The notes: generated by a model from the letters alone, not told the origin. DNA of 64,000 nucleotides from an uncultured Methanosarcinaceae archaeon (GCA_963727895.1 CAVSHT010000013.1:1-64000); one strand, 5' to 3'. Positions 10,736-30,868 are shown, counted from the first letter of the stretch. Made by a program: numbers and translations.

Positions 10736-10823
10736 GCGAGGGTTGCCCAGCCAGGTCAAAGGCGCTAGGTTGAGGGCCTAGTTTCGTAGGAATTCGTGGG
10801 TTCGAATCCCATCCCTCGCACCA
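10736..10823 (+). tRNA. tRNA-Leu(GAG), copy 1 (CCA encoded)
   Basis: GCGAGGG/CCCTCGC acceptor; anticodon arm CTAGG-TTGAGGG-CCTAG; GTTCGAATC; ends ACCA. Confidence 0.95.
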
Positions 10824-10919
10824 ATTTCTTAATCTGTTAAGTTAAAAAACTTTGACTTTTGTAGATTTTTAAACGGTATTTTATAGAATTTTGGATTATT
10901 TATTTGTAACATCCTTAAT

Positions 10920-11004
10920 GCGAGGGTTGCCCAGCCAGGTCAAAGGCGCCAGGTTGAGGGCCTGGTTTCGTAGGAATTCGTGGGTTCGAATCCCATCCCT
11001 CGCA
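10920..11004 (+). tRNA. tRNA-Leu(GAG), copy 2
   Basis: Same as copy 1 except anticodon stem CCAGG/CCTGG; no encoded CCA. Confidence 0.93.
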
Positions 11005-11364
11005 TCAATGTTTTTTCTTAAAATAATGAAAAATCTCAGGAGTTAATTGAAGTTTTTATTTTTGGTATTCAGATTCTTGACAAAAATCTGAGCTTGCTGT
11101 ATCTATAATCGTTGGTCTTCAGTATTGTTGGTTTTCTTTCCAATATACACAGGGATGTCAACCTGAACCTGCTTTTTTTCCAGCCTAATATTTTGCTTAT
11201 GAGGTACCAGTGCGCTGTATAATTCTGGAAAGTACTACACAAATTTGTGAATTACAGCTGATGTTTTAGCAATATCCTTAAATACGTCTTCAATCTTTAT
11301 TGTTGTCGCAACAACAGTTGCATTCACAACTATTTAACTGTTCATAACTAAGGAGGAGCATCAC

Positions 11365-11823
11365 ATGGACAAGATGCCACTCGGAGCATTAATCTCTATA
11401 ACATATCGCAGTAATTTTGTGAGGATAAACAATCAGATGAAAGAATTTGGTCTTTCAGCAGGCCAGTTTTTCGTACTCATAATGCTTTCGGACGAGCAGG
11501 GTATTACACAGGACACGATTGCCGGAAGACTGCTTATCGATAAGGGAAGTATAGCTCGGGCGGTTAATGTTCTTGAGGATAAAGGTCTGGTCAAACGTAT
11601 CACCGATGAGAATAATCGTCGGGCTGTACGTCTTCATCTTACGGAAACGGGGGAACAGCTCATCCCAGAAGTCGTTAGAATATACAGGGAATGGGAAGAA
11701 GCTGCATTTTCAGGACTCACAGAAGAAGAGAAGGTACAGGCAAAACTACTGCTCCTCAAAATAGCACAGAACAGTTACAAAGCTGCTTATGAAAACGGTG
11801 AAAAAAATGGAAAAAGTTTGTAG
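11365..11823 (+). CDS. MarR-family transcriptional regulator
   Basis: GLSAGQF, ITQDTIA, LEDKGLVKR, NRRAVRLHLTETG. Confidence 0.92.
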   Translation: MDKMPLGALISITYRSNFVRINNQMKEFGLSAGQFFVLIMLSDEQGITQDTIAGRLLIDKGSIARAVNVLEDKGLVKRITDENNRRAVRLHLTETGEQLIPEVVRIYREWEEAAFSGLTEEEKVQAKLLLLKIAQNSYKAAYENGEKNGKSL

Positions 11824-13070
11824 TGAAAGACCTGCAATAAATGGTCAAAAACAAAAATATGAGACTTTAAAACTTATCGTGATATTAAGTGCATCTATGC
11901 TGACTATAATGGGGTCTGCTGCAGTTGCGCCGGCATTGCCGGAGATGCTTGAATATTTTGTTAATGTACCAAATGCAAGTCTACTTGTGTCCATGGTAGT
12001 CACACTACCGGCACTTGGTATCATTATCAGTTCTCCTTTTATCGGTATTCTTGCTGACAGATACAGCAGGAAGAAGATACTAATGGTATCACTTGCCATA
12101 TTTGCGCTTGTAGGTGTAACTGGTGCATTCCTCAATTCACTCTACATAATACTTGCCTTCAGGTTATTACTTGGAGTTGGTATTGCAGGAATGACAATCT
12201 GCACATCGGCACTTCTTGCCGATAACTATACTGGTGCTGAGCTGAAGAAAAAGACCGCACTTCAGGCGGCATGTATGGGTTTTGGAGCTGCGGTACTTCA
12301 ACTAGCAGGCGGCGCCCTTGCAGGAATAAACTGGCATTCTTCTTATTACATATACCTTATTTCACTGCTGATAATTCCAGGAGTCATTCTCTCAATAAAT
12401 GGATCAAAAAGAAGCAGCAATCATGGTCATGGGAAAGTCGGAAATGTCATGGCAAATGAAAAAAGAGACCCCCTCAAGGAGTATAATTCTAATCTATATA
12501 GCCACGTTCACTCTCTTGGTTCTGTTTCTTTCCATACCTACAAAGCTTCCATTCGTCCTGAATGAAAAAGGCATCTCATCAACACTAATGATTGGAGCTC
12601 TGATCTCAATTCCTGGATTATTTGCTACAGCAGGTGGACTGGGGAACATTATAGTATCAAGAAATCTATCAGAGATCCAGACGAACTGCATCTTCTTTTT
12701 CATTCTTGGAATCGGCATCTATATCCTTTCCCTAGCCTCTAATACCTCAATTCTGATCATTGGATTGATGATGGTTGGTCTTGCATTTGGGGTAATAAAC
12801 GCTACCAATATGAGCTGGCTTGGCAGGATCGCTCCGGAACACTCACGTGGCAAGATATTTTCCGGATTTACAACTATACTTTTTGCCGGAGAATTTCTCA
12901 GTCCCATAGTTATTCAACCCCTTCTCAAAATAGGTACACTCTATGATGCTTATGCATTCTTGGGAATTGCTGGAATTGTACTGGGAGTTATCTTTGGTGT
13001 GGCAAGTATCATGAGAATTGTTGAGCCACCAATCATAATTCCTCATCCTATCAAGGTAAAAGCAAAATAA
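11807..13070 (+). CDS. MFS drug-efflux-type transporter (frameshift near 12460)
   Basis: VAPALP, GILADRYSRKK motif A; the second half (HSRGKIFS) continues in another frame after an A-run at about 12458-12463. Confidence 0.85.
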
Positions 13071-15487: not shown

Positions 15488-17637
15488 TCATACATTTAAC
15501 ATTCTTAACATCTCATTGACTTCATTAGTAGGGAGCTGGCATTCATAATTTTGGCAGACATATGCAGTAGCTTTTCCCTCTATTGGAACTTGCTCTTTTG
15601 TATATTTTGCCAGACTTGTAATTTCAGGTTCCTCCCCTTCAGGTCTGAAAACCAGCACTTTATTAGGAATGAAGTAAGTCCAGAGTTCCTCTAACATGTG
15701 TCCAGTGTCTAAAGATTCGCGTCTCCCTGCAATTACAACTTGATATACTGGCCCAAAACCAAAGTCAAGCGCTGATAAAAACTGGGTATACCCTGATGGT
15801 ATTTTTCTAATAAGTTTTGAAAACGCACGTTCTATCCTTTGAGCCCGATCTTCCAGTTCTGGATCTGCAGTTATTCTGGAAAGCCTAAGAAGATTTAGCA
15901 TCTCTATAGAGTTTCCTGAAGGTATGGCTGCATCCGTAAATTCTTTTTTTCTGAAAATAAGCGATTCACTATCATCAGCAGTAAAGAAAAGTCCACCCTG
16001 AACAGGGTCCCAGAAATGCTCAAGAAGTTCTCTATTGAGACAAAGGGCTGCTTTAAGATATTTCAGTTTAAATCCTGCCTCGTAAAGCTCGATAAGTCCA
16101 TGAATTAGGAATGCATAGTCCTCGGCAGTTCCGAGAATACCAGATTCGCTATCTCTATATCGGTGAAGCAGTCGTTTATAGGGATCATAAAGTGTCTTGA
16201 GAATGAAATCAGCAGCTTTTTCGGCAGCTTTCAAATACCTTTCTTCGCCAAAGGTCTGGAAACCTTTTGCAAAAGATGCAATCATAAGTCCGTTCCAATC
16301 AGTCAGAATCTTGTCGTCTATTACAGGTTTTTTACGTTTATTCCGAGCTGCCAGAAGTTTTTCTTTAGCTAGTTTTACCTTACTCTCAACTTCTTCGGCT
16401 GGGAGTTCCAATTTCTGCAGCAAGGACTCCTAGGGAACGGGGCATATATAAAATATTAGTCCCTGTTTTTTTACCTCTTATTTCTTCTTCAAAATTACCT
16501 CCTTCTTTGAGATTGAACACTTTTGTAATTAGGTCATACTCTTCAAGGCTAAGAACACTCCTGATTTCTTCTAGAGTCCATAGATAATATTTTCCTTCCT
16601 CTCCTTCGACGTCAGCATCTTCCCCACAATAAAATCCACCTTCCTGAGATGTCAGATCTCTTAGTACATAATCAAGGATTCCCTCTGCTGCTTCTTTATG
16701 TAGTTTCTTTCCTGTAACTTGATAGGTTTCTATGTATGCAGTTGAAATAAGAGCCTGGTCGTATAACATCTTTTCAAAATGAGGAACAATCCACATATTG
16801 TCTGTAGAGTAACGGTGGAAACCCCAATCCAGGTGATCATGGATTCCTCCCCTGTACATATTTTCTAGTGTATGTTCGACCATATGAAGAGCTTCAGGAT
16901 CTCCACTGCGTCTCCAGTATCTGAGCAAAAAGAACATTTTATGTGGAGTAGGAAATTTTGGGGCTCCTTCAAAACCACCATATTCGTTATCAAAAGAAGC
17001 CAGTAATTCTTCATAGGATTCTTCCATTATTGATTCACTTATATCCTCACCTGCTGATTCGGAAATTATATTCTGGATTGTATACGTGATCTTTTCAGCC
17101 GAATTAAGCACTTCTTCTTGCTGTGTTTTCCATATCTCTTCTATTTTAGGCACGAGTTCAAGCATTCCTGTTTGGCTAAAACGGGATTTTTTGGGGATAT
17201 AAGTTCCTGCAAAAAAAGGCTTCATGTTTGGAGTCATAATAATATTAAGTGGCCAGCCACCTCTTCCAAGTATAATCTGACAGACTGTCATGTATATGTT
17301 GTCAATGTCCGGCGTTTCTTCTCGGTCTACTTTTATGCAAACAAAAGCTTTATTCATTAGTTCTGCTACTTTTTCATCCTCAAAAGATTCATGTGCCATT
17401 ACATGACACCAGTGGCAGGTGGAGTAACCAATTGACAGAAAAATAGGCTTATTTTCGTTTTTGGCTTTCTTAAAAGCTTCTTCTCCCCAGGGATACCAGT
17501 CTCACAGGATTATAGGCATGCTGAAGGAGATACGGGCTTTTTTCATTTAGCAGGCGGTTAGATTTTCTGTATTCTTTACCAGTAAAATCCCCCCGCTTTC
17601 GGCTTTGGTAGTCATTGTTGCCTTGCCTGAAGGACAT
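15488..17637 (-). CDS. YyaL/SPATA20-like thioredoxin plus six-hairpin glycosidase-like protein (frameshifts near 17503 and 16412)
   Basis: [19 protein letters not shown] / [54 protein letters not shown], spread over three frames. Confidence 0.88.
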
Positions 17638-18179
17638 ACAGTTGTAATTTTTCCAGTTTTTTACGTTTTCAATTCTCAGTAGTTTCAAATGATACCGAAA
17701 ATAATCTTGCACTAAATTTAAAGTGATGTTTTCTAATTCTCCTTCCCTCTTAAAGCAGTTTCCACGATGATGTGGATTTAACTCGTTAATAGTGTCCAAT
17801 TTAACTCCCCTGTATAGACCTCTCTGAAGATTCATTCTTAATGAATGGCTACCGCTGAGCGGATAAGTTTACCCCACTATAATGCTAATCGTTCTCAAGC
17901 CTCTTGTAAGCTTGCTAACTGAAGAATTAGGTACAGCCAAATTTACCCCACTTTAAATACTCATCTCTTTAATATCAATATATCGGTGTCTCAGGGGATT
18001 ATTTTTCTAAGCTGTTAAATATTTAAACAAATTATTTAAAATGATATAAACTGAAAATTCATCAAAACATTTATTTTTTCTTTTTTAATTTTTCCACTAT
18101 TGGTTAGAAAAACAATTTATTTAGTTGATATCGCAATATTCTCACATTGCATTTTATATCAGACTGTAAATAATATACT

Positions 18180-19662: not shown

Positions 19663-20460
19663 TTGGGAACAAGGGGATTACTAGTGTTAGGTTATCATAA
19701 TTTAGATTTCACTCTTATTAAATTTATACAACTTTGTTCTTCAATGAAAGAAAAATATAATTTCATTACTATGAACGAGTACGTGACTGCTGGTGGTAAT
19801 CTTCCTAAACGTTTTATATTAATGCGCCACGACATCGATAGATCTGCAAAGAATGCACTTAAAATCGCAAGTATAGAAGAGAAATTTGGTATACGGGCTA
19901 CATATTACTTCAGAACCACTAAGAAAACTTTTGTTCCTGAAATTATCCAAAAAATTGAAAAAATGGGACATGAGATCGGATATCATTATGAGTCTTTGAG
20001 CAAAACAAATGGAGATGTTGGAAAAGCAATCAGATTATTTGAGAGCGATGTAAATAAATTTCGAAGTATCTGTAATCTCAAAACTATTTGTATGCATGGT
20101 GCTGTACTGTCTAGGCACGACAGTAGAGACCTATGGAAGTATTATGATTTCAAGGATTTTGGACTTACTGGAGAAGCTTATTTATCTGCCGGAAAAAACC
20201 TCAATTATTTTACTGACACAGGTGGAATGTGGAACTCTAAACATAATTTACGAGATTTTATCCCAGGTAAGACTGAATATATCTCTGTTGAAACAACTGA
20301 TGATCTTATTAAGTTGATTGAAAGTAACAACATAAATAATTTTTATATCACTTTACATCCGAACAGATGGAAATCAAACACTTTTAATTGGAGTCTATGG
20401 TGGTTACAGGAACATGTAATGAATTCTGGAAAAAAAGTCCTGAGAGCGGTGAGAAAGTGA
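19663..20460 (+). CDS. Polysaccharide deacetylase-like (NodB fold) protein
   Basis: LMRHDID, GIRATYYF, GHEIGYH, terminal LHP; start uncertain. Confidence 0.7.
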   Translation: MGTRGLLVLGYHNLDFTLIKFIQLCSSMKEKYNFITMNEYVTAGGNLPKRFILMRHDIDRSAKNALKIASIEEKFGIRATYYFRTTKKTFVPEIIQKIEKMGHEIGYHYESLSKTNGDVGKAIRLFESDVNKFRSICNLKTICMHGAVLSRHDSRDLWKYYDFKDFGLTGEAYLSAGKNLNYFTDTGGMWNSKHNLRDFIPGKTEYISVETTDDLIKLIESNNINNFYITLHPNRWKSNTFNWSLWWLQEHVMNSGKKVLRAVRK

Positions 20461-21478
20461 AGGATGTTGTAACAAGCATCAAGGAAGACGAATGGAAAAC
20501 ATTTTTGGACAATTTTAATACTGCAAGTATTTACCATACTCCTCAATGGAAAAAATTTTTGGAAAGCACATTTGACTATGAACCTAAATATCTCTTTGCA
20601 AAAGATGAATGTGGAAATCTAACTGGATTATTACCTTTATTTTATGTTAAAAGTAAATTAACATCTAATATATTGTGTTCTGTACCGTTTTCTCATTTAT
20701 GTGGTTACATAGGTTCTGAAGATTCGAGAGATTTCCTTATTGGTGAATTAGTAAATGAGTATTCAAAGTTACATGCCTCCTACTTTGAGATTAGAGATTT
20801 GGTAGATTCATTACCACATAAAAATTTGTATTCTACATACATATTAGAGTTATCCTCAAATGTTAACGAGACATGGAATTAATTAGATAAAGAAAGCGTC
20901 AGGAGAGCAATCACAAAATCAAAAAAAATGCAAGTAGAAGTTAATTCTACTAAAGATGTAGATGATCTCAAAAGTTTTTATGAACTCAATTGCATTAATA
21001 AAAAGAACAGTGGAGTACCCTGCCATCCATGGAAATTCTTCAAAAATATTTTTACATTTCTAAATGGCAACGTAGCTCTCTACACTGTAATCTATAATGA
21101 TCTGATTATTGCTGGCGGTATTTTTTTGTATTTTTATGAAAGGGTTATTTACGGATATGGTGCTTCTCATCCTGATTCTCTTAACTTTTATCCCAATAAT
21201 GCATTCATCTGGAAAAGTATCGAGGATGCATGTGTAAATGGATATAAATATTTTGATTTTGGCCGTGTGTCCTACGATAACAAAGGGTTGATAAATTTCA
21301 AAAAAAGAGGGGGGACAATTGAAAAAAATTATGTTATAGCTATTATCCGCAAACTCCCGAGACTTTGGCTGGTAATCGAGAAACTCTTATATATAAATTG
21401 GCCACGAGCACGATTCAGAAAATGCCACCTCTAATCTACAAGAAGTTCAGTGATAATGTTTTTGAACTTTTTGGGTGA
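20457..21478 (+). pseudogene. FemAB-like GNAT acyl/aminoacyl transferase, interrupted
   Basis: IYHTPQW, LTGLLPL, SVPF, VRRAI, FDFGR, GLINFK; in-frame TAA at 20880-20882 and A-run frameshift near 21325. Confidence 0.7.
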
Positions 21479-21482
21479 AACT

Positions 21483-21586
21483 ATGAAAATTGTTGTCAGT
21501 GTAAATCATCCTGGTCATGTTCATGGTCATGTTCATTTATTCAAAAATTTTATCTGGACTATGCAGAAAAAAGGACATGAAATATT
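21483..21586 (+). pseudogene. DUF354-like glycosyltransferase N-terminal stub, truncated by IS1
   Basis: MKIVVSVNHPGHVHGHVHLFKNFIWTMQKKGHEI resembles the HPxHVHxFK DUF354 start; 12-bp duplication GGTCATGTTCAT; ends at the IS left end. Confidence 0.65.
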
Positions 21587-22326
21587 GGCATTGATAATTA
21601 ACTATCGCTATATATTATTAGAAAGTATATTTCTTCATTAACTGCCCCAGATGCAATAGTTCCAGTCACAAAAAGAACGGTATAGTTGGCGGGCGTCAAC
21701 GGTACAAATGCTCTGATTGTGGCTATAACTATACAGTAGAGCTAAAATCAACTGCTTTTTCCGCTTCTGTAAAAAGACAGGATTTACAACTCTATCTTGA
21801 AGGATTGGGCTTTCGCTCAATAGGAAGAGTTTTAGGGGTAAGTCATGTTTCTGTCCAAAAATGGATAAAGAAATTTGGTCAGGAGTTAGAGGACCTAAAA
21901 AGTGAAAATGAGATATCTATTGTTGAAATGGATGAGATGCACACTTACATCGGTAACAACAAAAATATTGCTGGATCTGGATTGCTGTTGATAGAGTTGG
22001 GAAAAAGTTCATCAACTGCTCTTTTGGTAGCAGAGGAACGGGAACTGGAAAATTACTCTGGGAAAAAGTGAAGAAAAAAGAGATTGGAGAAGTGATGACA
22101 GATCACTGGAGAGCATATGCAGAATTTCTTCCAGAAAAAATCCATACTCAATCAAAAGCAGAAACATTTACAGTTGAGGGATATAACAGCATATTGAGGC
22201 ACTTTTTGGCAAGGTTGAGAAGAAAGACAAAGTGTTATACGAAGAGTCTTGAAATGCTAAAGTACTCGGTTATTCTATTGATGAAATACAGAAATAAAGA
22301 ACTGGATATATTTAAGTAACAATGCT
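21587..22326 (+). mobile_element. IS1-family element (740 bp), inactivated copy
   Basis: Ends GGCATTGAT.../...AACAATGCT; InsA CPRC..CSDC zinc ribbon with ATG changed to ATT; InsB VMTDHW; near-identical to 55605-56344. Confidence 0.92.
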
Positions 22327-22648: not shown

Positions 22649-22951
22649 TCAGTAGTTTTCAAGCACAGAGCCAACAATATTTTTATAGTTTTCTTTCAGG
22701 GAATATACGTTGTGATCACCGGTAACATTTATGCTTAGAATTCCTAGTCTTGTGTTCATAAGCCCGACCATAGCCGACACTCCCCGGTAGCTTACCTCAA
22801 AATTTCCTTTATCCAGGTAATCGTAAACTTCACCGGTGGTGAACTTGTCTCCGGTCAGGAAGAGATTGAGCACAACTTTGCGTATCCCGTTTTCATCCCT
22901 GCCGAGATACTTAATCAATCTCGCTCTTACCCTTTCTTCCGCAGTTTGCAG
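22649..22951 (-). CDS. DUF2551-like winged-helix protein (possible CTG start)
   Basis: Frame open to CTG CAA ACT GCG GAA at 22951 with a GAGGTG RBS 7 nt upstream; SYRGVSAMVGLMNTRLGIL. Confidence 0.75.
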   Translation of the reverse strand: MQTAEERVRARLIKYLGRDENGIRKVVLNLFLTGDKFTTGEVYDYLDKGNFEVSYRGVSAMVGLMNTRLGILSINVTGDHNVYSLKENYKNIVGSVLENY

Positions 22952-23489: not shown

Positions 23490-24176
23490 ATGTATAGCGA
23501 GAGTTTAATATTGTCTTCTCCTATTTCCCTTGCATCTATTCCTTACTTGTGGCAACAGAGTGATGTTCTTATTTTACTTGTTAACTTGGATGATTATGTG
23601 ACATTCAATACAAGCTATCTTAACAAGACAGAAATGGAATATCTTGAAAGATTAAAGACTGGTTATTTTAAGAAAAGATATATTGTCTCAAGAACGGTAT
23701 TAAAACACATTTTATATTATATTATTAGAGTGGAACCTGTCTCAGAAATTTCAACATATAAGGATGAATATGGGAGATTATGTATACACAATCATTCGGA
23801 TCTGCACATTTGTATCTCATATACCCAAAACACTGTAGTCCTTGCAATATCAAATATCGAGATTGGTATTGATATTGAACTTGGGAAAACACTAATTCTT
23901 AAAAGTAATTTAAGAAAGTTGGGCTCAAAATTTTCATTCACAGATGAATCCATAAATGAAGCTGATCTTTTAAAAATATGGACATTAAAAGAAGCTTATT
24001 CCAAGTTTTCAAACAAGAGCATGTATTTTATTTTTTGTCAAATATTGGACCTAAATGGTGTCAAATATTTAACATATTTTATAGATAATAAATATGTGTT
24101 ATCTATTATCACTTACTCAGGCTCTCATATTGTCAGTATAAATCACCTTCAGAAAATTGACTGCAACTGGATATAA
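23490..24176 (+). CDS. Sfp-type 4'-phosphopantetheinyl transferase
   Basis: Signature IGIDIE and WTLKEAYSK motifs, plus DEYGRL and ISYT. Confidence 0.85.
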   Translation: MYSESLILSSPISLASIPYLWQQSDVLILLVNLDDYVTFNTSYLNKTEMEYLERLKTGYFKKRYIVSRTVLKHILYYIIRVEPVSEISTYKDEYGRLCIHNHSDLHICISYTQNTVVLAISNIEIGIDIELGKTLILKSNLRKLGSKFSFTDESINEADLLKIWTLKEAYSKFSNKSMYFIFCQILDLNGVKYLTYFIDNKYVLSIITYSGSHIVSINHLQKIDCNWI

Positions 24177-24438
24177 ATTTTCAGAAACACTGAAAGCTCC
24201 GAACCCCTTACCCTTTTCTTTTTCTTCTTGAAGTGACCTATTATATCATTTAATGCATCAAGCACAAATACATTCTAATAATATTTTCGTTCGTATATAT
24301 TTTATTTCTCTTTAATATCCTCAAATTATTTATATAGTTGTATTGCGTAAATTATCAGTGGGGATCATGTAAAGTATGGACGTATTATTGTGTTATTCAC
24401 AATCATTGATTTGTTAAACGAAATAAAGGGGAGTACAT

Positions 24439-24684
24439 ATGGAACAAATAAAGAGTGATATAATCGATTACTTGAAGTCTAATTCTTTTATGGACAACAA
24501 CAGCAGTTTGAAAGATAGTGATTCTCTAACTCAAAACGGTATTATAGACTCTATTGGTTTGCTTGAACTTATGGACTATATATGTGATAAATATTCGATA
24601 GAGATTCCTGAAGATATGCTAACACCTGAAAATTTTGATTCTTTGCAAGGAATTACTAATATGATAAACAAGCTGGCGAAGTGA
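24439..24684 (+). CDS. Acyl/aminoacyl carrier protein (DltC-like)
   Basis: 81 aa, acidic; GIIDSIG phosphopantetheine Ser; ENFDS; GGGGAG RBS. Confidence 0.92.
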   Translation: MEQIKSDIIDYLKSNSFMDNNSSLKDSDSLTQNGIIDSIGLLELMDYICDKYSIEIPEDMLTPENFDSLQGITNMINKLAK

Positions 24685-24690
24685 AAAGGA

Positions 24691-26169
24691 ATGAGAATTG
24701 ATGCGTATATCACTGAGTACGCCAAAAAAACTCCTCAAAGCATTGCCTTGGAAGAGGGAAAATGTTCAATTTCCTATAGCTGTCTTGATAACGATATAAA
24801 TTCCATTGCTTCGTCTTTGATGGATTTTAATCGTTGCCGGTTTGCAATACTGGCAGAGTCAGGCATGCAGTATATAAAAATGCTCATGGCGGTATATCGA
24901 TCTGCTAACATCGCAGTCCCTCTGCCAATAGAATTTCCTAAGTTCAGTCTTGAAAAAATCCTTGATGCTGCCCATGTCAACAATATCATCGCAACCGATA
25001 TTCAGTACTCAAGATTTGGAGAGGACTTTTTTGAGCGTTTTGGAACTGTGATAGTTATCTCCGGCAAGACTTCAGGAGAGGTTTTACGCAAGAATATTGA
25101 AACTAATACTAATAATCCTGAATTACGGCTGGTACTTTACACTTCAGGCACGACAGGCAGTCCAAAAGGGGTCATGTTAAGTGATAGAAGTCTGGTAGCA
25201 AATTCAGAGTCAATAATAAAGGTGCTCAGGCTAACTCCCAAAGATAAAGGAGCACTTGTGATCTCCCCACATCATGCTTTTGGGAATTCCATTATTAATT
25301 CTCATCTTATAGCTGGGAGCTCATTAAGGATTGGAAATATGAATTTCATGGATCCAGTTTTCAATCTTATAGAGTCAGAAGTATCCATATTTTATGGGGT
25401 ACCCAGTACTTACCGAATACTCCTTCGATATCCTGATAGATTCGGAAGAGTTTTTGCTAGCGTGAGAACTGCTGCATCAGCAGGTGGAGGAATGGATAAG
25501 TCGATTGTAAAAGAGATAACAGAGTTAGCTCCGTCTATGGAAATTCTACCTATGTATGGGCAGACTGAAGCAACTGCAAGGCTTGCCTATCTGCCGGCAG
25601 AAGACATAGGTGAGTTTGTAGACACTATAGGAAAAGCGATTCCAGGAGTTATATTGGATGTCTTTGATTCTAATCACAGATCTGTAGGTCCAAATATAAC
25701 GGGTGAACTGGTGGCTTCGGGAGATAATATTATGCTTGGGTATCTCGATGACGAAATTGCAACTGAAAAAAAAATTGTAAATGGGTGGCTGCATACAGGT
25801 GATCTTGCACAAAAATTGTCGAATGGATATATCAGACTGCTTGGACGCAAAGATGACCTAATCAAAATTGGTGACCATCGTATTAACCCAAGAGAAATTG
25901 AGAGAAGTATAGAAGAAAATAACGAAGTTTCTAAGGTTTTTGTTGTACCTGTATACCATGAACTTATGGGTACTGCAATTAGCCTTATGGTCATACCTGA
26001 AGCGGGAACAAAAATTGAAGAATTGTTTGCTTTCTGCCGAAAAAGCTTTCCAGCCTACCTATTTCCAAGAGAAATATTACTCATTGATCATCTTCCATTG
26101 AGCGAGAATGGGAAAATATCCAATCGATCCATAATAGAGGAGTACCAACATGTCAAAGCTAGTATGTAA
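24691..26169 (+). CDS. Class I adenylate-forming (ANL) ligase
   Basis: YTSGTTGSPKG, YGQTE, WLHTGD, GRKDDLIK, PLSENGKI. Confidence 0.93.
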   Translation: MRIDAYITEYAKKTPQSIALEEGKCSISYSCLDNDINSIASSLMDFNRCRFAILAESGMQYIKMLMAVYRSANIAVPLPIEFPKFSLEKILDAAHVNNIIATDIQYSRFGEDFFERFGTVIVISGKTSGEVLRKNIETNTNNPELRLVLYTSGTTGSPKGVMLSDRSLVANSESIIKVLRLTPKDKGALVISPHHAFGNSIINSHLIAGSSLRIGNMNFMDPVFNLIESEVSIFYGVPSTYRILLRYPDRFGRVFASVRTAASAGGGMDKSIVKEITELAPSMEILPMYGQTEATARLAYLPAEDIGEFVDTIGKAIPGVILDVFDSNHRSVGPNITGELVASGDNIMLGYLDDEIATEKKIVNGWLHTGDLAQKLSNGYIRLLGRKDDLIKIGDHRINPREIERSIEENNEVSKVFVVPVYHELMGTAISLMVIPEAGTKIEELFAFCRKSFPAYLFPREILLIDHLPLSENGKISNRSIIEEYQHVKASM

Positions 26170-27187
26170 AAAGTGCATTCTGGATTCGGAGATTCCAGGC
26201 ATACAAATCAATGAGGACACGGGACTCTGTCATTTTTGTGAGACATATAAGCCCCTTACTTCACAGGAAAAGAATGAGTATCTGATAAAAATTGAAAAAC
26301 TTTTTGATGAATACTGTGGAAAAGGCAAATACGATGCAATTTATGCACTTTCAGGTGGTAAAGATTCTTCGTATACGCTCTACAAGCTCAAAAAAGATTA
26401 TCCTTTCCTTAAGATGCTCGCTGTGCAGTTTGATAATGGGTTTACTTCTGAAAACGCAATAAAGAATGCAAAAAAAATGTGTAAGATCACAGGTTGTGAT
26501 TACTTCCAGCTGACAATGGAAAAAGAAGTTCTATACGATACTTTTAGAAAAGCTGCAGATTCATACGATGCGTTTCCAAAGTTTGCTAAATATAGAGCCA
26601 GTGATATATGCAATGTTTGCATCACTATCATCAAACAGAAATTGATAGAACAGGCTATTCTTCAAAAAGCTCCTTTTATTATATTTGCCTTTACAGCTGG
26701 GCAGTCTCCTAATCCTATAATTAACTTATCTGTCAATTTTATTCAGTGGTCCAGAAATTTATTTGAGAAACAGCTTCAAAAAATAGGTATTGACGATAAA
26801 GATGAAGTCTTTCTCTTGAAAAAAGAGGTTCTTGAAAGCATAAGTGAGAATGTTCCAAGTATTCTGCATCCCCTGTGTCTATGGGAATATAGTGAGGATA
26901 AAGTGCTTGAGACCTTGCTGGATATAGGGTGGGAACTTCCAGGAATTAGTGATAGCAATTCAACTAACTGTACACTGAACTCTTTTGCCTGTTACAATCA
27001 TCTGGAAAAGTACGGGTTTCATCCCTATGCTTTTGACATAGCAGGGCTTGTTCGAGCTGGGGAAATGACAAAAGAGGAAGGACTTGAGAAAGTTAACCAG
27101 GAACTATCAAAGCCATTGATAGAAGAAGCTAAAAGAAAACTCAAGTTGGATATGAAAAGCTCACAAAAAATATCCATTAAAGTTTGA
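26150..27187 (+). CDS. N-type ATP pyrophosphatase (WbpG/PseA-like amide/amidine-forming enzyme)
   Basis: N-terminal CKKC..CHFC, PP-loop ALSGGKDSS, FDNGF, CNVC, STNC, RAGEMTKEEGL; overlaps the ligase by 20 nt. Confidence 0.8.
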   Translation: MSKLVCKKCILDSEIPGIQINEDTGLCHFCETYKPLTSQEKNEYLIKIEKLFDEYCGKGKYDAIYALSGGKDSSYTLYKLKKDYPFLKMLAVQFDNGFTSENAIKNAKKMCKITGCDYFQLTMEKEVLYDTFRKAADSYDAFPKFAKYRASDICNVCITIIKQKLIEQAILQKAPFIIFAFTAGQSPNPIINLSVNFIQWSRNLFEKQLQKIGIDDKDEVFLLKKEVLESISENVPSILHPLCLWEYSEDKVLETLLDIGWELPGISDSNSTNCTLNSFACYNHLEKYGFHPYAFDIAGLVRAGEMTKEEGLEKVNQELSKPLIEEAKRKLKLDMKSSQKISIKV

Positions 27188-27238
27188 TTTTGAGATACTG
27201 CCTAAATAGAACAATTTGATTATATTGGGAGTGATATT

Positions 27239-28231
27239 ATGCAGATTGTAGAAGAACTGAGAGTAAATATATTGGAAGAACTCACTAGAGATATTGATAA
27301 AGTCTCTTTAAAACTCAGATATTTTATTAGAGATCAGGTAAAGGGTTATAAGAAAAAAGGCGTGGTTATAGGGGTTTCAGGAGGTATTGACTCGGCTGTG
27401 ATACTTACCCTCTGTGTACAGGAACTCGGAAAAGAAAATGTATATGCACTCCTTCTTCCTGAAGATGAATCTGCCCCATCCAGCAAAATTCTGGGAGCGG
27501 AAATCTGTGAAAATCTGGGTGTATCGTATGAAGAGGTACCTATCTCTCCTATCTTAAGAGCTCTTAATATCTATGATAAGAAAGAACAGATTATAAAGAG
27601 AGCCTGCCCTGAATATGATGCCAGAATTCATAAAACGTCGCTGGTGCTGCCTGATTTTCTTAGCCAGGGACTTCTAAATGTTCCATATATTCGTCTGGTC
27701 AAAAATGGTGAAACTATTGGGAAGTACAGGTTGAAGGCAACTGATTACCTTGAATTAATAGGATTGCAGGGTTTCAAGCAAAGATCCAGAATGGTTGTCC
27801 AATATATGTATGCCGAATCGATGAATTACGTAGTTTGCGGCACTACCAACAAGACTGAACTGGTTCTTGGTCAATTTGTAAAATATGGAGATGGAGGTGT
27901 AGATTTAGAACCTCTTGCAGACTGTTATAAGACTCAGGTTTATGCTTTAGGGAAATATTTGGGTGTCAATGAAGAAATTATTAAACGCCCTCCAAGTGCT
28001 GATACATGGAGCCATTATACAACTGATGAGGAATTCTACTGGCGCATGCCAATTCAGATAATGGATCAACTGCTTTATTCTCAGGAACATCATTTGCCTT
28101 TAGATGTGGTTGAAAAGAACACTGGATTGTCCAGAAATCAGATAGAAAAAGCTCAGAACCACATCAATAAAATAAAAGACACCACAGAATATGTGCGAGC
28201 CGCGCCGCCGATTTGCTATATTAACAGATAA
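27239..28231 (+). CDS. nadE: NAD+ synthetase-like amidoligase (divergent NadE)
   Basis: GVSGGIDSA, GTTNKTE, KYGDG, KTQVYAL, PPSAD; central insertion, and FKQRSRM in place of the usual KARxRM. Confidence 0.8.
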   Translation: MQIVEELRVNILEELTRDIDKVSLKLRYFIRDQVKGYKKKGVVIGVSGGIDSAVILTLCVQELGKENVYALLLPEDESAPSSKILGAEICENLGVSYEEVPISPILRALNIYDKKEQIIKRACPEYDARIHKTSLVLPDFLSQGLLNVPYIRLVKNGETIGKYRLKATDYLELIGLQGFKQRSRMVVQYMYAESMNYVVCGTTNKTELVLGQFVKYGDGGVDLEPLADCYKTQVYALGKYLGVNEEIIKRPPSADTWSHYTTDEEFYWRMPIQIMDQLLYSQEHHLPLDVVEKNTGLSRNQIEKAQNHINKIKDTTEYVRAAPPICYINR

Positions 28232-28419
28232 CTTGTAAAAAAGCCTGTCTTAAAGGTTATACTGGCTAAAATACGATTAAAAATGAGAAATTTCATGTTT
28301 GCCTCCAGCAAATATTCATCTGTAAACTATCAACTATAAACTGCTAGAACCTTTCTGACAGGAGTCTTTTCATATAAATTTCATTGTGAAAACTGAAACT
28401 CACTCAATATTTTTAAAAT

Positions 28420-29559
28420 ATGGATATGAATACCAAGGTCTCAATTGTTGAATGTCAGGATTATTCTGATGCCAAAAAAGCGGTAAAAGAAGCATTGAAC
28501 CTGATAGGTGGGCTTGAGAAGATTATGGCTCCTGGCAACCGTGTGCTTCTCAAACCCAATGTGCTTGCTATTAGACCGCCAGAAGATGCTGTTACTACTC
28601 ATCCGGCAGTAGTAGCTGCTATGTGCGAATTGGTTTTAGAAGCTGGAGGTATCCCAGTTATAGGAGATGGTTCTGGCATTGTAAAACCCGGCTCTACTAC
28701 AACTTCACAGGCGTTTAAAGCGTCTGGTATTGAGAAGGTTGCTTCTGATCATGGGGTTGAGCTTCTCAATTTTGAGACTTCAGGCTTTGTTGAGGTTGAT
28801 GTTCCGGGCACAAAACAGTTTTCTCATTTACATATCTCAAAAGCTGTGCTTGAAGCAGATGTAATAATCTCGCTTCCCAAGCTCAAGACTCATGAGCTCA
28901 CGCTTTATACAGGGGCAGTCAAAAATTTCTTCGGGACCACTCCTCAGAAAACCCGAAAACAAGCTCATTTTTTAGAAGACCGTACTCGTTTTGGGGAGGC
29001 GGTTATCGATATATATTCTGCCGTAAAACCTCAGCTTGCAGTTATGGATGGTATAGTTGGAATGGAGGGAAATGGTCCTTCTAATGGTACATCTATTTTT
29101 GCAGGTGTGATTATGGCTAGTTATGACTGTGTGGCACTGGATATTGTAGCCTCTAAGCTTATAGGAATCGATCCTTTGAAGGTGCCTACAAATAGAGTTG
29201 CACTTGCAAGAGGATTCGGAACAGAACATCCTGAGATTGTGGGGACACCCATGGAAAAGGTAAAGGTCAAATTCAAAAACCCGGAAGGTGGAAGCACTGC
29301 TTATATCCCAGCTTTTCTTATGAGAATTCTTCGAAGGCAATTAGCTGTAAAACCAATTATCAACACTTCAAACTGTGCATTTTGCAAGGCATGTGTTTCA
29401 AACTGTTCGGTACACGCCATTGAAGAGGTAGGCAAGTCACTCAAAATTAACGAGGAAAAATGCATTCAATGTTATTGCTGCCGCGAGCTTTGTCCTAAAG
29501 GTGCGGTAGAATTGAAAAAATCGTTGTTTTTAAAGCTTGTTACTCGAATTAAAAGTTAA
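28420..29559 (+). CDS. DUF362 domain plus 2x[4Fe-4S] ferredoxin protein
   Basis: LLKPN, TTHP, PKLKTH, GAVKN, GMEGNGP; CAFCKACVSNC and CIQCYCCRELCP. Confidence 0.88.
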   Translation: MDMNTKVSIVECQDYSDAKKAVKEALNLIGGLEKIMAPGNRVLLKPNVLAIRPPEDAVTTHPAVVAAMCELVLEAGGIPVIGDGSGIVKPGSTTTSQAFKASGIEKVASDHGVELLNFETSGFVEVDVPGTKQFSHLHISKAVLEADVIISLPKLKTHELTLYTGAVKNFFGTTPQKTRKQAHFLEDRTRFGEAVIDIYSAVKPQLAVMDGIVGMEGNGPSNGTSIFAGVIMASYDCVALDIVASKLIGIDPLKVPTNRVALARGFGTEHPEIVGTPMEKVKVKFKNPEGGSTAYIPAFLMRILRRQLAVKPIINTSNCAFCKACVSNCSVHAIEEVGKSLKINEEKCIQCYCCRELCPKGAVELKKSLFLKLVTRIKS

Positions 29560-29715
29560 AAGAATAAGCCTTAGATTCATCTCAGCAGACTGAATATTTG
29601 TGTTCAACAGATTCTTAATATTAGAATTAATCCTTAGAATTAATCCGCATAATATGTAAAATATATTTATTCTTAAAAGAACAATAGAAAATGAGTATAA
29701 AATAACTTTATAGAA

Positions 29716-30264
29716 ATGGGGGGCATTGGTATGACTACTTTAGTTTCTAATAGAGATCAAGTAGCTTATCGTGAAATCACGAGTTATTACCACAGTAATA
29801 AAATCCTGTTTGGTATCAAATATTTTAAGAATTGGGTTCTTGAACGACTTGCCTCAATTGCTCCTGTTCCTTCCTGGAGGGCGAAATTGCACAGGATGCG
29901 AGGTGTAAACATTGGGAAGAATGTATATGTTGGCTATGACGTGGTTTTTGATAGGATTCACCCTGAATTAATTACAGTAGGAGATTATTCTGAAATCGGG
30001 GATCGGTGTATACTATCGGCGCATTCTAGAGGAAGTCTGACTACAAGACAGGCGTATCCAAGAACCATGGCTCCAATAAAAATCGGACGTGGAGTTTGTG
30101 TAAATCCGGGGTGTATAATCACGCAAGGGGTCGAAATTGGAGATAATTCGATAATAGGTATTGGGTCCGTAGTTAACCGTGATATTTCTCCCAATAGTCT
30201 TGCTCTTGGTTATCCTGCAAAAGTAGTCAAAAAACTTGAAGGTGTAGGGGAACTTAAAACTTGA
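29716..30264 (+). CDS. Left-handed beta-helix acyltransferase (maltose O-acetyltransferase-like)
   Basis: GVNIGKNVYVG, ITVGDYSEIG, ILSAH, IGDNSIIGIGSVV, GYPAKVVK. Confidence 0.88.
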   Translation: MGGIGMTTLVSNRDQVAYREITSYYHSNKILFGIKYFKNWVLERLASIAPVPSWRAKLHRMRGVNIGKNVYVGYDVVFDRIHPELITVGDYSEIGDRCILSAHSRGSLTTRQAYPRTMAPIKIGRGVCVNPGCIITQGVEIGDNSIIGIGSVVNRDISPNSLALGYPAKVVKKLEGVGELKT

Positions 30265-30283: not shown

Positions 30284-30868
30284 TTATTTTTCAGTTTTGT
30301 ATTTCAGTTCAAAACCGTATTTACTCAGGGCAAAGAGTGCCATTATTATTACCAAGAATATGAAAAAGACTGATATAAAAGATGTTATCAGGTAATGAAA
30401 GAGCCCAGTTTCCCGAAAACTTACATCCATCATTGAAAATAGACTGATTTTTTTCTCGTATATAGGATAAAGGTACTCACAGCCGCCTTCACTGATGTCA
30501 TCCAGCAGTAAGTGTGAAGTGAAGGCAACCTCTGCAAGAATTCCAAGATACATTGCCTTGTCAAGTTTTCTATACAACGCATATCCTATAATTATTCCGA
30601 ACAGGACTGCAGGAATACTGAATATGAGCGAATGTGTTGGAATCGGTCCAATCCAGCAATGTTCCATAGTACCTTTTACGAGGAAGCTGTGAACAACCAC
30701 AATATCCGGAAATAACGAACATATGCTACCTACAAACAGCAACAATAGTAAATGTTTTGAGTCTTTAAGAGAAAATTCTCCTCTAAAAAAAGATCTGGTA
30801 GTAGCGTAGACTGCTCCTGCACAGATACAGAATACGAAAAATAACACATCAACAACTGGATAGGGCAT
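30284..30868 (-). CDS. Membrane-bound metal-dependent hydrolase (YdjM-like)
   Basis: SLFPD, THSL, SHLLLD motifs; hydrophobic. Confidence 0.8.
   Translation of the reverse strand: MPYPVVDVLFFVFCICAGAVYATTRSFFRGEFSLKDSKHLLLLLFVGSICSLFPDIVVVHSFLVKGTMEHCWIGPIPTHSLIFSIPAVLFGIIIGYALYRKLDKAMYLGILAEVAFTSHLLLDDISEGGCEYLYPIYEKKISLFSMMDVSFRETGLFHYLITSFISVFFIFLVIIMALFALSKYGFELKYKTEK

Follow-up and report, generated by a model that had tools for sequence, protein, structure and literature searches.

We describe here a conserved gene cassette in a 64,000-nucleotide stretch of DNA from an uncultured Methanosarcinaceae archaeon (GCA_963727895.1, CAVSHT010000013.1:1-64000; this whole stretch is referred to as the window). 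The cassette occupies positions 23490-30264 and consists of seven co-oriented open reading frames (ORFs), all on the + strand, which encode a 4'-phosphopantetheinyl transferase (PPTase), a small standalone protein resembling acyl and peptidyl carrier proteins (ACP and PCP), an adenylate-forming ligase of the ANL superfamily, a PP-loop ATP pyrophosphatase, a NadE-like ATP pyrophosphatase, a DUF362-ferredoxin protein and a hexapeptide acyltransferase. This arrangement is far beyond chance, because it is syntenic in 8 of 8 genomes of the genus and its core recurs across families and domains. We assign a probability of about 45% to the reading that the cassette is a dedicated thiotemplate which loads a non-amino carboxylic acid on the carrier, that the tethered acyl group is amidated and has an oxygen exchanged, probably for sulfur, and that the product is passed to a surface glycan. 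The parts of this reading differ in strength: that the cassette contains a carrier-based loading unit is very probable, that the PP-loop enzyme acts on or with the carrier/ANL system is probable, a surface glycan is slightly favored as the acceptor, and the odds that the PP-loop chemistry is sulfur insertion are even. We infer all steps of the pathway; the direct evidence consists of gene content, motifs, co-conservation, gene fusions, genomic context and RNA-library cover.

Results

The carrier-loading unit

ORF listing, translations and family scans agree on seven co-oriented genes with the coordinates and motifs that an earlier note on this DNA had given (Table 1). The ligase gene starts 6 nt past the ACP stop codon and overlaps the PP-loop gene by 20 nt; the spacing and the start/stop overlap suggest translational coupling of the cassette genes.

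The PPTase scores 22.4 bits with ACPS (PF01648), for which the Pfam cutoff is 25, and has weak AusB/HetI matches; the ACP scores 20.3 bits with PP-binding (PF00550; cutoff 20.8), its best NCBIfam matches being AmcB and OlsHI-type ACPs. These sub-threshold calls were retained because of motif conservation in the orthologs. The PPTase translation contains IGIDIE and WTLKEA, in keeping with the Sfp-type signature, (V/I)G(I/V)D…W(S/T)xKEAxxK, and GxDxE and WxxxEAxxK are kept in 11 of 11 orthologs of this protein, the least conserved of the block (44-63% identity in 8 genus loci). The ACP contains GIIDS, with Asp37-Ser38 invariant in 21 of 21 orthologs, and the orthologous ACPs of two bacterial loci (L106 and L111 in Table 2) are above the PF00550 cutoff, with 30.5 and 28.8 bits respectively. 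A PF00550 search of the archaeon's own genome gave no matches, the cluster ACP itself included, because that protein is divergent; a family profile (A2) was used instead, and in this assembly, which is 84% complete, the cluster ACP is the only match to it. The PPTase is likewise the sole match to PF01648. Since there is one PPTase match and one ACP-profile match in the genome, the two appear to be a dedicated pair, in which the PPTase would serve the adjacent carrier; these sole matches support the earlier proposal of a self-contained PPTase-carrier-ANL loading unit, as opposed to fatty-acid synthesis. Archaea are generally described as lacking ACP-based chemistry (PMC3533463, PMC4609331). A complex prediction for the PP-loop protein and the ACP (alignments A1 and A2) reached a score of 0.12 against a mark of 0.32, which is evidence neither for nor against an interaction.

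The absence of ketosynthase, condensation and thioesterase genes from the cluster, noticed earlier, extends to all 76 window ORFs scanned (75 distinct), among which no such domain was found; nor did these ORFs contain any ketosynthase, acyltransferase, ketoreductase or dehydratase domain of the kind that would identify a type II fatty acid or polyketide synthase. In the assembly as a whole there is one marginal ketosynthase-like match (27 bits), no thioesterase, and one weak condensation/alcohol-acetyltransferase-like gene of sporadic distribution on a different contig. This last gene (C4:145964-147418, L118:5965-7422, 485 aa), which adjoins a cytidylyltransferase-like gene and a MerR-type regulator, was considered as an off-cluster partner and rejected, as it occurs in 5 of 35 genus genomes versus 33 of 35 for the cassette (own genome counted in both).

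The ligase

The ANL protein matches AMP-binding with 169 bits and AMP-binding_C with 42.6 bits, and all the core motifs of the superfamily are there (YTSGTTGSPKG, YGQTE, WLHTGD, NGK). With the amino-acid adenylation-domain (A-domain) model TIGR01733 it scores 178 bits, far from the cutoff of 317. In HMMER alignments with the two A-domains of LgrA, the Asp of the FDxS motif, equivalent to the PheA Asp235 that binds the α-amino group, aligns to a Phe or a Gly of the query, and the conserved A4 stretch, PHHAFGNS, contains no acidic residue. Because the acidic residue expected for α-amino acids is missing, an amino acid is an unlikely substrate, and the ligase is likely to use a carboxylic acid without an α-amino group: of the two classes of substrate suggested earlier, amino or carboxylic acid, we keep only the second. 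The best characterised structural relatives include oxalate-, malonate- and feruloyl-CoA ligases together with A-domains, none near enough to name the acid.

Orthologs with 73-86% identity are present in 23 of the 24 other genus genomes (three are contig-end fragments; G002 has none), and in 16 genomes of other families of the order nothing exceeds 29% identity. The ligases of more distant loci are of two types: the window type in L100, L106, L107, L109 and L111, and an exosortase-A-associated type with the motif SFDYG in L112, L114 and L115 (TIGR03098 477-482 bits for L114 and L115, the two that were scored).

The PP-loop enzyme

The translation of the PP-loop gene contains SGGKDS and CxxC pairs. 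Its best match is TIGR03573 (WbuX, N-acetyl sugar amidotransferase, NASAT) with 108.4 bits versus a cutoff of 203.2, and none of 19 family representatives reaches that cutoff, the best having 198.1 bits; there are also weak QueC and tRNA_Me_trans matches. A relatives search over 1.84 billion representatives gave 68 at E < 1e-30, and the best 150 were inspected for fusions; conservation was assessed in an alignment of 113 sequences, that is the query, 101 representatives of 300-385 aa and 11 domain slices, with 38 shorter or longer representatives left out. In a search of public proteins the 120 matches listed were all close Methanosarcina orthologs, and so were uninformative about distant relatives.

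In the 113-sequence alignment a triad of cysteines (C154, C157, C274) is invariant (113/113, and 46/46 in a second alignment), the N-terminal Zn ribbon (C6, C9, G25, C27, C30) is kept in 105-111 sequences, and the PP-loop itself in 107 (S68), 113 (G69), 109 (G70), 107 (D72) and 111 (S73). The protein thus has both elements, PP-loop and Zn tetracysteine CxxC…[GN]xCxxC, by which the NASAT (WbuX) family is defined (PMC10607449). As a reference we used 13 bona fide WbuX proteins from the same phylum, all above the curated cutoff (247-392 bits): all 13 have Zn ribbon and PP-loop, and 12 of them lack Cys at all three triad columns. The triad is present in the query, in 10 family representatives and in a sub-threshold Methanosarcina paralog (186.6 bits). 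This second NASAT-like paralog of Methanosarcina genomes has 376 aa (G014:C1:1317241 region, L116:1215-2345); the copy in the archaeon's own genome (C9:277295-277741) has a TGA inside the match. The cluster PP-loop ortholog itself (76-81% identity) is present in 2-3 copies in G145, G107, G006, G143 and G160, with three in G145 and stop codons inside several of the matches.

A close parallel to the triad is found in CtaC, from the closthioamide pathway of Ruminiclostridium cellulolyticum, an AANH/PP-loop enzyme with a [4Fe-4S] cluster that thioamidates only CtaE-tethered substrates, with ATP and sulfide, and whose activity needs D77 and S78 in the ATP site and the cluster ligands C154, C157 and C284 (PMC6772006). 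Window residues D72, S73, C154, C157 and C274 correspond to these five in order, and 117 residues separate the CxxC from the third Cys, versus 127 in CtaC. This spacing is much nearer to that of CtaC than to the roughly 89 residues of TtuA. That the PP-loop protein works like CtaC is supported by motif, spacing and association with a carrier.

The AlphaFold2 (AF2) model of the PP-loop protein (pLDDT 94.9) has its best fold match in the Legionella NASAT 8wex (TM 0.69), followed by the [4Fe-4S] sulfurtransferases NcsA, TtuA, YcfA and Fe-S LarE (TM 0.33-0.40). A physical link to carrier systems is apparent from fusions among the best 150 relatives: two are ANL-PP-loop proteins (P0126, P0139), in eight the PP-loop domain lies between A-core and A-sub/PCP in the order condensation-A(core)-PP-loop-A(sub)-PCP, and one has the order A-PP-loop-A(sub)-PCP. 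An 826-aa ANL-PP-loop fusion ORF is also found in genomic DNA, at the Pacearchaeota locus L107. A further relative, P0181, carries an N-terminal PilZ (c-di-GMP-binding) domain, which hints at control by c-di-GMP, as is common for exopolysaccharide synthesis.

In a FastTree phylogeny of 135 sequences and 338 columns, rooted approximately on the WbuX-holding clade (whose support is only 0.46), the query belongs to a clade of 9 tips (support 1.0) together with two ANL fusions; this is nested in a 75-tip clade (support 1.0) with all six bacterial proteins from polysaccharide loci. The PP-loop domains embedded in nonribosomal peptide synthetases (NRPS) form their own clade (support 1.0), and the Methanosarcina paralog and WbuX fall outside a clade of 111 tips (support 0.98). 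We propose that the PP-loop protein is a [4Fe-4S] enzyme that tailors a carrier-bound acyl group. Rather than forming an amide bond, it would be likely to replace the oxygen of an amide or carboxyl group, either with sulfur (the CtaC reaction) or with NH (the WbuX reaction).

The NadE-like gene

The NadE-like protein scores 189 bits with PF02540 and passes NF002048 (476 bits, cutoff 313), but an insertion of about 60 aa divides its PF02540 match into two parts (72 and 116 bits), whereas the canonical NadE encoded elsewhere gives one continuous match (294 bits in this genome, 288-302 in four complete relatives). A housekeeping role as NAD synthetase was rejected on these grounds, there being a canonical NadE elsewhere in all 5 genomes checked; the cluster protein is an accessory paralog from a widespread uncharacterised family of about 320-334 aa. 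The activity proposed for it is ammonia-dependent amidation of a carboxylate. Both ATP pyrophosphatases of the cluster had at first been considered amide-forming; this description fits the NadE-like enzyme only, the other belonging to a NASAT-like, Cys-triad family that is tied to carriers by fusion.

A third NadE-like paralog (C14:22966-23814; L035:9985-10845) was examined as a possible second copy of the cassette and dismissed, being 31% identical to the cluster protein and having no ACP, ANL or PP-loop gene nearby. It adjoins a YdjM-like gene, a type of neighbor that it has in common with the cluster NadE-like gene, and a UbiA prenyltransferase gene seemingly interrupted by a transposase region.

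Conservation and context of the cassette

The gene order PPTase-ACP-ANL-PP-loop-NadE-(DUF362)-hexapeptide gene-YdjM(-)-radical SAM(-)-cyclase is kept in 8 of 8 genus loci, DUF362 not being found in one of them (L012). Homologous loci, which the earlier note had thought possible in other Methanosarcina, do occur there and extend well beyond. PP-loop orthologs with at least 65% identity are present in 32 of 34 genus genomes and in four more genera of the family (g20 12/13, g23 5/6, g26 10/11, g14 6/34); a fifth, g25 (1/3), has a single contig-end fragment with 68% identity, g13 has only a 29% relative, and 9 of the 16 genera, including g18 (0/11) and g22 (0/11), gave no match. The genera that hold such orthologs include Methanosarcina, Methanolobus, Methanococcoides and Methanomethylovorans. 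Relatives with 46-52% identity are found in Methanomicrobiales, and relatives with 35-39% in a Pacearchaeota metagenome-assembled genome (MAG), Thermodesulfatator, Desulfobacterales, Sporobacter, Pirellulales, Pedobacter and other bacterial MAGs.

Co-occurrence was counted over those 49 of the fetched loci in which the PP-loop gene had 6.5 kb or more of sequence to each side, and the counts are a pattern to which no statistical test is attached. All 49 loci have both the ACP and the ANL gene, 45 have the NadE-like gene, 38 the PPTase, 34 the hexapeptide gene and 29 DUF362; in the most distant group, consisting of four bacterial loci and one from Pacearchaeota, the NadE-like gene is found once and the PPTase not at all (1/5 and 0/5). 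These counts identify ACP-ANL-PP-loop(-NadE-like) as the core, and DUF362 and the hexapeptide gene, which had been listed as part of the cluster and are indeed present in it, as accessory. Co-conservation, on which the proposal of a single system depended, is borne out by the synteny of the 8 genus loci and by the co-occurrence counts.

The gene content around the more distant cassettes is given in Table 2. An AsnB-type amidotransferase is beside the cassette in 4 of 6 bacterial loci, and a NadE-like gene takes its place in all archaeal loci. Exosortase, glycosyltransferase, Wzy, Wzx, deacetylase, FemAB and sugar-amine genes surround the cassette across L100, L106, L107, L112, L114 and L115.

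Table 2. Genes around the cassette in distant loci (GT, glycosyltransferase; ADH, alcohol dehydrogenase; SDR, short-chain dehydrogenase/reductase).
Locus	Source	Genes
L114	Pirellulales	Hexapep, ACP, two FemAB/GNAT, AsnB, ANL, class-III aminotransferase, PP-loop, exosortase, chain-length kinase
L115	Deltaproteobacteria	PP-loop, ANL, exosortase with DUF3485, Hexapep, GDSL, polysaccharide deacetylase, FemAB-type GNAT, GT4, GT2
L112	unclassified bacterium	ACP, ANL, methyltransferase, AsnB, PP-loop, Wzy_C, LPG_synthase_TM
L111	Sporobacter	Hexapep, ACP, PP-loop, ANL, AsnB
L109	Desulfobacterales	AsnB, ACP, ANL, PP-loop, ADH
L106	Thermodesulfatator	MarR, ACP, ANL, PP-loop, UDP-glucose/GDP-mannose dehydrogenase, ManC, APS kinase, FemAB-like
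L100	Methanomicrobiales-level identity	MocA oxidoreductase, DegT aminotransferase, Hexapep, GT2, radical SAM, NadE-like, ACP, PP-loop, PPTase, ANL, Wzx-type flippase, GT4
L107	Pacearchaeota	ANL-PP-loop fusion, SDR, sulfotransferase, GT28, Hexapep, NadE-like

RNA-library cover

Positions 24439-28960 are tiled by contigs from the RNA libraries of three studies, which share 90-99% identity with the window and hence come from related strains. The junctions ACP/ANL, ANL/PP-loop, PP-loop/NadE and NadE/DUF362 are crossed by single contigs, of which the longest (2341 nt) spans 26595-28914; the cover is compatible with a transcription unit from ACP to DUF362. Neither 24093-24323 nor the greater part of the PPTase and hexapeptide genes had any contig, a gap that is not readable as lack of expression.

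Accessory genes and neighbors

The DUF362 protein (209 bits, plus matches to Fer4 families) has no counterpart in the Methanococcoides-type, Methanomicrobiales and bacterial loci; DUF362 belongs to Pfam clan CL0471 together with LarA/DUF2088 (PMC11770544). The hexapeptide protein (Hexapep 39 bits), whose weak best matches are polysaccharide acetyltransferases of the WcaF, EpsC and HpsU types, is an accessory candidate for the transfer enzyme, and unrelated hexapeptide genes flank the cassette in L100, L107, L111, L114 and L115.

Upstream of the cassette (Table 1) are a deacetylase-like gene and a FemAB-type gene, whose best NCBIfam matches include XrtA/PEP-CTERM types; the latter gene is broken by an in-frame TAA at 20880-20882, and the module looks decayed in this genome. 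Neither gene was found in the 8 genus loci, where the IS1 remnant also has no match; the idea that the deacetylase/FemAB/IS1 stretch is an insert unique to this genome had to be abandoned in part, since deacetylase and FemAB genes recur in Methanolobus-type loci, where they flank the cassette in 7 and in 5-6 of 19, respectively. A 63-aa ORF without family match (21450-21641) lies between the FemAB halves and the IS1 remnant. Elsewhere in the window, an MFS transporter gene (11789-13070) and a DUF255/thioredoxin-domain gene (16386-17835) each appear as two overlapping or adjacent ORFs; the disrupted window genes could be real pseudogenes or assembly frameshifts.

The fixed neighbors in Methanosarcina are a cis-prenyltransferase, DUF2551, a YdjM-family membrane protein, a radical-SAM gene and a cyclase. 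The YdjM gene adjoins the cassette in 20 of 23 Methanosarcina-type loci and in the Methanococcoides loci L070 and L083; its family has hydrolases among its members. In the 8 genus loci the DUF2551 gene (22649-22918, - strand), which lies divergent to the PPTase gene, has 97-99% identity, far more than the 44-91% of the cassette genes. Ribosomal-protein, SecY, RpoD and eIF2-gamma genes give the window its archaeal character, and two tandem tRNA-Leu(GAG) genes, about 95 nt apart (10736-11006), lie just downstream of the RpoD-like gene.

Table 1. Positions in the window of the cassette genes and of neighboring features.
Feature	Position	Strand	Length or match
Sfp-type 4'-phosphopantetheinyl transferase (PPTase)	23490..24176	+	228 aa
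Standalone carrier protein (ACP/PCP-like), attachment Ser38	24439..24684	+	81 aa
ANL adenylate-forming ligase, presumed carrier loader	24691..26169	+	492 aa
PP-loop ATP pyrophosphatase, NASAT-like family, Zn ribbon and Cys triad	26150..27187	+	345 aa
NadE-like N-type ATP pyrophosphatase paralog (NF002048/PRK00876 subfamily)	27239..28231	+	330 aa
DUF362 domain fused to 2x[4Fe-4S] ferredoxin domain, accessory	28420..29559	+	379 aa
Left-handed β-helix (hexapeptide) acyltransferase, sugar O/N-acetyltransferase type, accessory	29716..30264	+	182 aa
YdjM-family membrane protein, conserved convergent neighbor	30284..30868	-	YdjM 44.5 bits
Polysaccharide-deacetylase-like gene	19663-20460	+	weak Polysacc_deac_1 match
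FemAB-type transferase gene, two halves split by in-frame TAA	20388-20882, 20928-21434	+	TIGR03019 64.9 and 50.7 bits
IS1-family transposase remnant, two ORFs	21805-22319	+	DDE_Tnp_IS1 40.5 bits

Discussion

A pathway for the cassette and the points that weigh against it

The pathway that we favor would begin with conversion of the apo-carrier to the holo-carrier at Ser38 by the Sfp-type PPTase. The ANL ligase would then adenylate an acid without an α-amino group, possibly a dicarboxylic or hydroxy acid, and thioesterify it to the carrier; the NadE-like enzyme would amidate a free carboxylate with ammonia to give a carboxamide, a step for which the AsnB-type enzyme may substitute in bacteria. 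The PP-loop enzyme, with a [4Fe-4S] cluster on C154, C157 and C274, would adenylate an amide or carboxyl oxygen of the tethered acyl group and exchange it for sulfide-derived sulfur in the manner of CtaC, yielding a thioamide or thioacid, or alternatively for NH, yielding an amidine. Finally, an acyltransferase of the hexapeptide or FemAB type would move the acyl group to a sugar amine or hydroxyl, the amine being freed by the deacetylase where one is encoded. One idea that would unite the two ATP pyrophosphatases is that they successively convert one carbon of a half-tethered dicarboxylate from COOH to CONH2 and then to CSNH2.

Several observations weigh against this pathway or parts of it. 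The PPTase and the ACP both fall just under their Pfam cutoffs. A minimal cassette with a single ligase would offer no obvious route to an internal amide, so the substrate of the PP-loop enzyme is conjectural, and instead of a tethered acyl group the NadE-like enzyme might use a uronic acid or a nicotinate-type compound. Binding of an Fe-S cluster by the PP-loop protein is a prediction, and the best fold and family matches of this protein are with the amidine-forming NASAT/WbuX family. The exact residue numbering of CtaC is absent from all 270 proteins checked (120 and 150 from two relatives searches), so that the putative homology to CtaC is one of motif, spacing and context. Furthermore, the CxxC…C triad is retained by one protein above the WbuX cutoff (L131, G344:C1:30751-31743, 247 bits), perhaps an intermediate linking the two branches, and by several representatives near the WbuX clade; the triad alone is therefore no proof of sulfur chemistry. 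The co-occurrence counts include related, non-independent genomes and so make the support look stronger than it is, and because RNA libraries can hold DNA, a contig across two genes is no proof of a single transcript. Lastly, no glycosyltransferase is next to the cassette in Methanosarcina (window and 8 genus loci), and the case for a glycan thus comes mainly from distant relatives: the surface-glycan target named in the earlier note gains real support from the polysaccharide context of those relatives.

The matches to NASAT are the foundation of a different account, in which the PP-loop protein would be a NASAT, if a divergent one (WbuX/PseA-like), and would use ammonia to convert an amide to an amidine, either on a tethered acyl group or on an N-acetyl sugar, the ACP and ANL would provide a separate acyl decoration, and the NadE-like or AsnB enzyme would amidate a uronic acid of the same glycan. 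This account is consistent with TIGR03573 being the only NCBIfam model whose match spans nearly the whole protein, with the top rank of 8wex as fold match, with the Zn tetracysteine motif and the polysaccharide context, and with the presence of an ammonia-using partner almost always near. It does not explain why the score is so far under the curated cutoff, which none of the 19 family representatives reaches, or why a triad that is invariant here is missing in 12 of 13 bona fide WbuX proteins; the tight fusion to ANL and embedding between A-domain parts and PCP are also unexpected for an enzyme of nucleotide sugars. HisH/HisF-type ammonia-delivery genes, which the TIGR03573 description leads one to expect as partners, were not seen among the window ORFs scanned. 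We consider this account unlikely. We also regard as improbable a released thioamide or thioacid metabolite, for example a metal-binding compound, made by a minimal closthioamide-like, non-canonical thiotemplate pathway: the conserved block is without condensation, thioesterase, ATP-grasp, papain-like ligase and exporter genes, the relatives with the most informative context sit in polysaccharide loci, and hexapeptide transferases of the sugar type, FemAB and deacetylase genes recur beside the cassette. Such a metabolite would nonetheless fit the observation that about 75% of 100 CtaC homologs, mostly in anaerobes, adjoin thiotemplate natural-product genes (PMC6772006), as well as the NRPS-embedded relatives, the lack of an adjoining glycosyltransferase in the Methanosarcina loci, and the YdjM-family membrane protein as a conserved neighbor.

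Hardly any credence, on the other hand, is due to a loose neighborhood made up of an ordinary NadE, a tRNA- or cofactor-modifying PP-loop protein and an ACP/ANL remnant of transferred bacterial lipid metabolism. Database names lend it some color, as some public records call the PP-loop protein 'tRNA(Ile)-lysidine synthase TilS/MesJ' and NF002048 is named NAD(+) synthase, and so do the weak QueC and tRNA_Me_trans matches; it is contradicted by the canonical NadE in every genome checked, by the core being together in all 49 loci across domains and further joined by gene fusions, by the absence of ketosynthase or other fatty acid synthase genes nearby, and by the overlap and 6-nt spacing that suggest translational coupling.

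Implications

A PPTase-carrier-ligase system is a conserved feature of several Methanosarcinaceae genera and some Methanomicrobiales, and is covered by RNA-library contigs from environmental samples. In its most specific form our proposal is that in these archaea the sole carrier pathway of the genome uses an Fe-S PP-loop enzyme, together with a NadE-like protein working as an amidase in reverse, to build a thioamide or thioacid acyl group that is then attached to an envelope glycan; all of this together is unlikely to be correct. If it were true, no functional thiotemplate pathway would have been shown in archaea before, and no polysaccharide would previously have been known to bear a thioamide or thioacid substituent; the presence of the same cassette in bacterial polysaccharide loci, some with exosortase, would then make the chemistry widespread in anaerobes. 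The cassette also connects two lines of work pursued separately so far, on carrier-dependent thioamidation by CtaC and on the uncharacterised ACP/ligase/amidotransferase genes of bacterial exopolysaccharide loci, and brings both under a single hypothesis that can be tested. Should the product be a glycan substituent containing sulfur, or a metal-binding thioamide that is released, it would be relevant to the methanogen envelope, to trace-metal handling and to natural-product mining in anaerobes, and genetically tractable Methanosarcina strains would make the function of the cassette directly testable.

Comparison with known systems

In the open-access literature searched, which did not include the supplementary homolog list of PMC6772006, no description was found of a methanogen cassette of this kind or of PP-loop domains embedded in A-domains. 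Among the closest known systems is that of CtaC and closthioamide (PMC6772006, PMC7183216), with which the cassette shares a three-Cys PP-loop enzyme whose relatives are beside or inside thiotemplate enzymes, one or more stand-alone carriers, a stand-alone ANL-type loader and an anaerobic host. It differs in having no ATP-grasp, papain-like or transglutaminase-like ligase and no second carrier, and consequently no poly-amide chain to thioamidate, and in having a NadE-like/AsnB partner, a polysaccharide context and archaeal hosts. The sulfurtransferases TtuA, NcsA, YcfA and Fe-S LarE also combine a CxxC…C PP-loop with O-to-S exchange via an adenylated intermediate; their folds are more distant (the TM values given above), their substrates are tRNA, a nucleotide or a cofactor precursor, and they have other accessory domains. 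The NASAT enzymes (WbuX, WbpG, PseA; 8wex; PMC10607449) resemble the PP-loop protein in fold, PP-loop, Zn ribbon, polysaccharide-locus context and amide-carbonyl chemistry, and are set apart from it by its low score (108 bits against a cutoff of 203), by its extra Cys triad, and by its fusion or coupling to ANL and carrier.

With the teichoic-acid D-alanylation proteins DltA/DltC the cassette has in common a minimal unit of ANL ligase and small carrier and, in the reading that we favor, delivery of an acyl group to a cell-envelope polymer. DltA activates an α-amino acid, whereas the window ligase lacks the corresponding Asp; moreover, two tailoring ATP pyrophosphatases are added here and no DltB/DltD homologs were seen. 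A last parallel is with the XrtA/PEP-CTERM set (TIGR03098 ligase, TIGR03108 amidotransferase, TIGR03019 FemAB, TIGR03006 deacetylase), whose function is uncharacterised as far as the open-access literature searched goes: the bacterial relatives of the cassette are in polysaccharide loci, with an exosortase in L114 and L115, and these models are among the best matches of the window ANL, FemAB and deacetylase-like genes. The window scores are nevertheless all below the curated cutoffs, the ligase is of the subtype without SFDYG, and neither the window nor the archaeal loci scanned showed an exosortase. The type of chemistry and the thiotemplate logic of the cassette both have precedents among these known systems; its range of archaeal hosts, its NadE-like partner and its polysaccharide context are without precedent.

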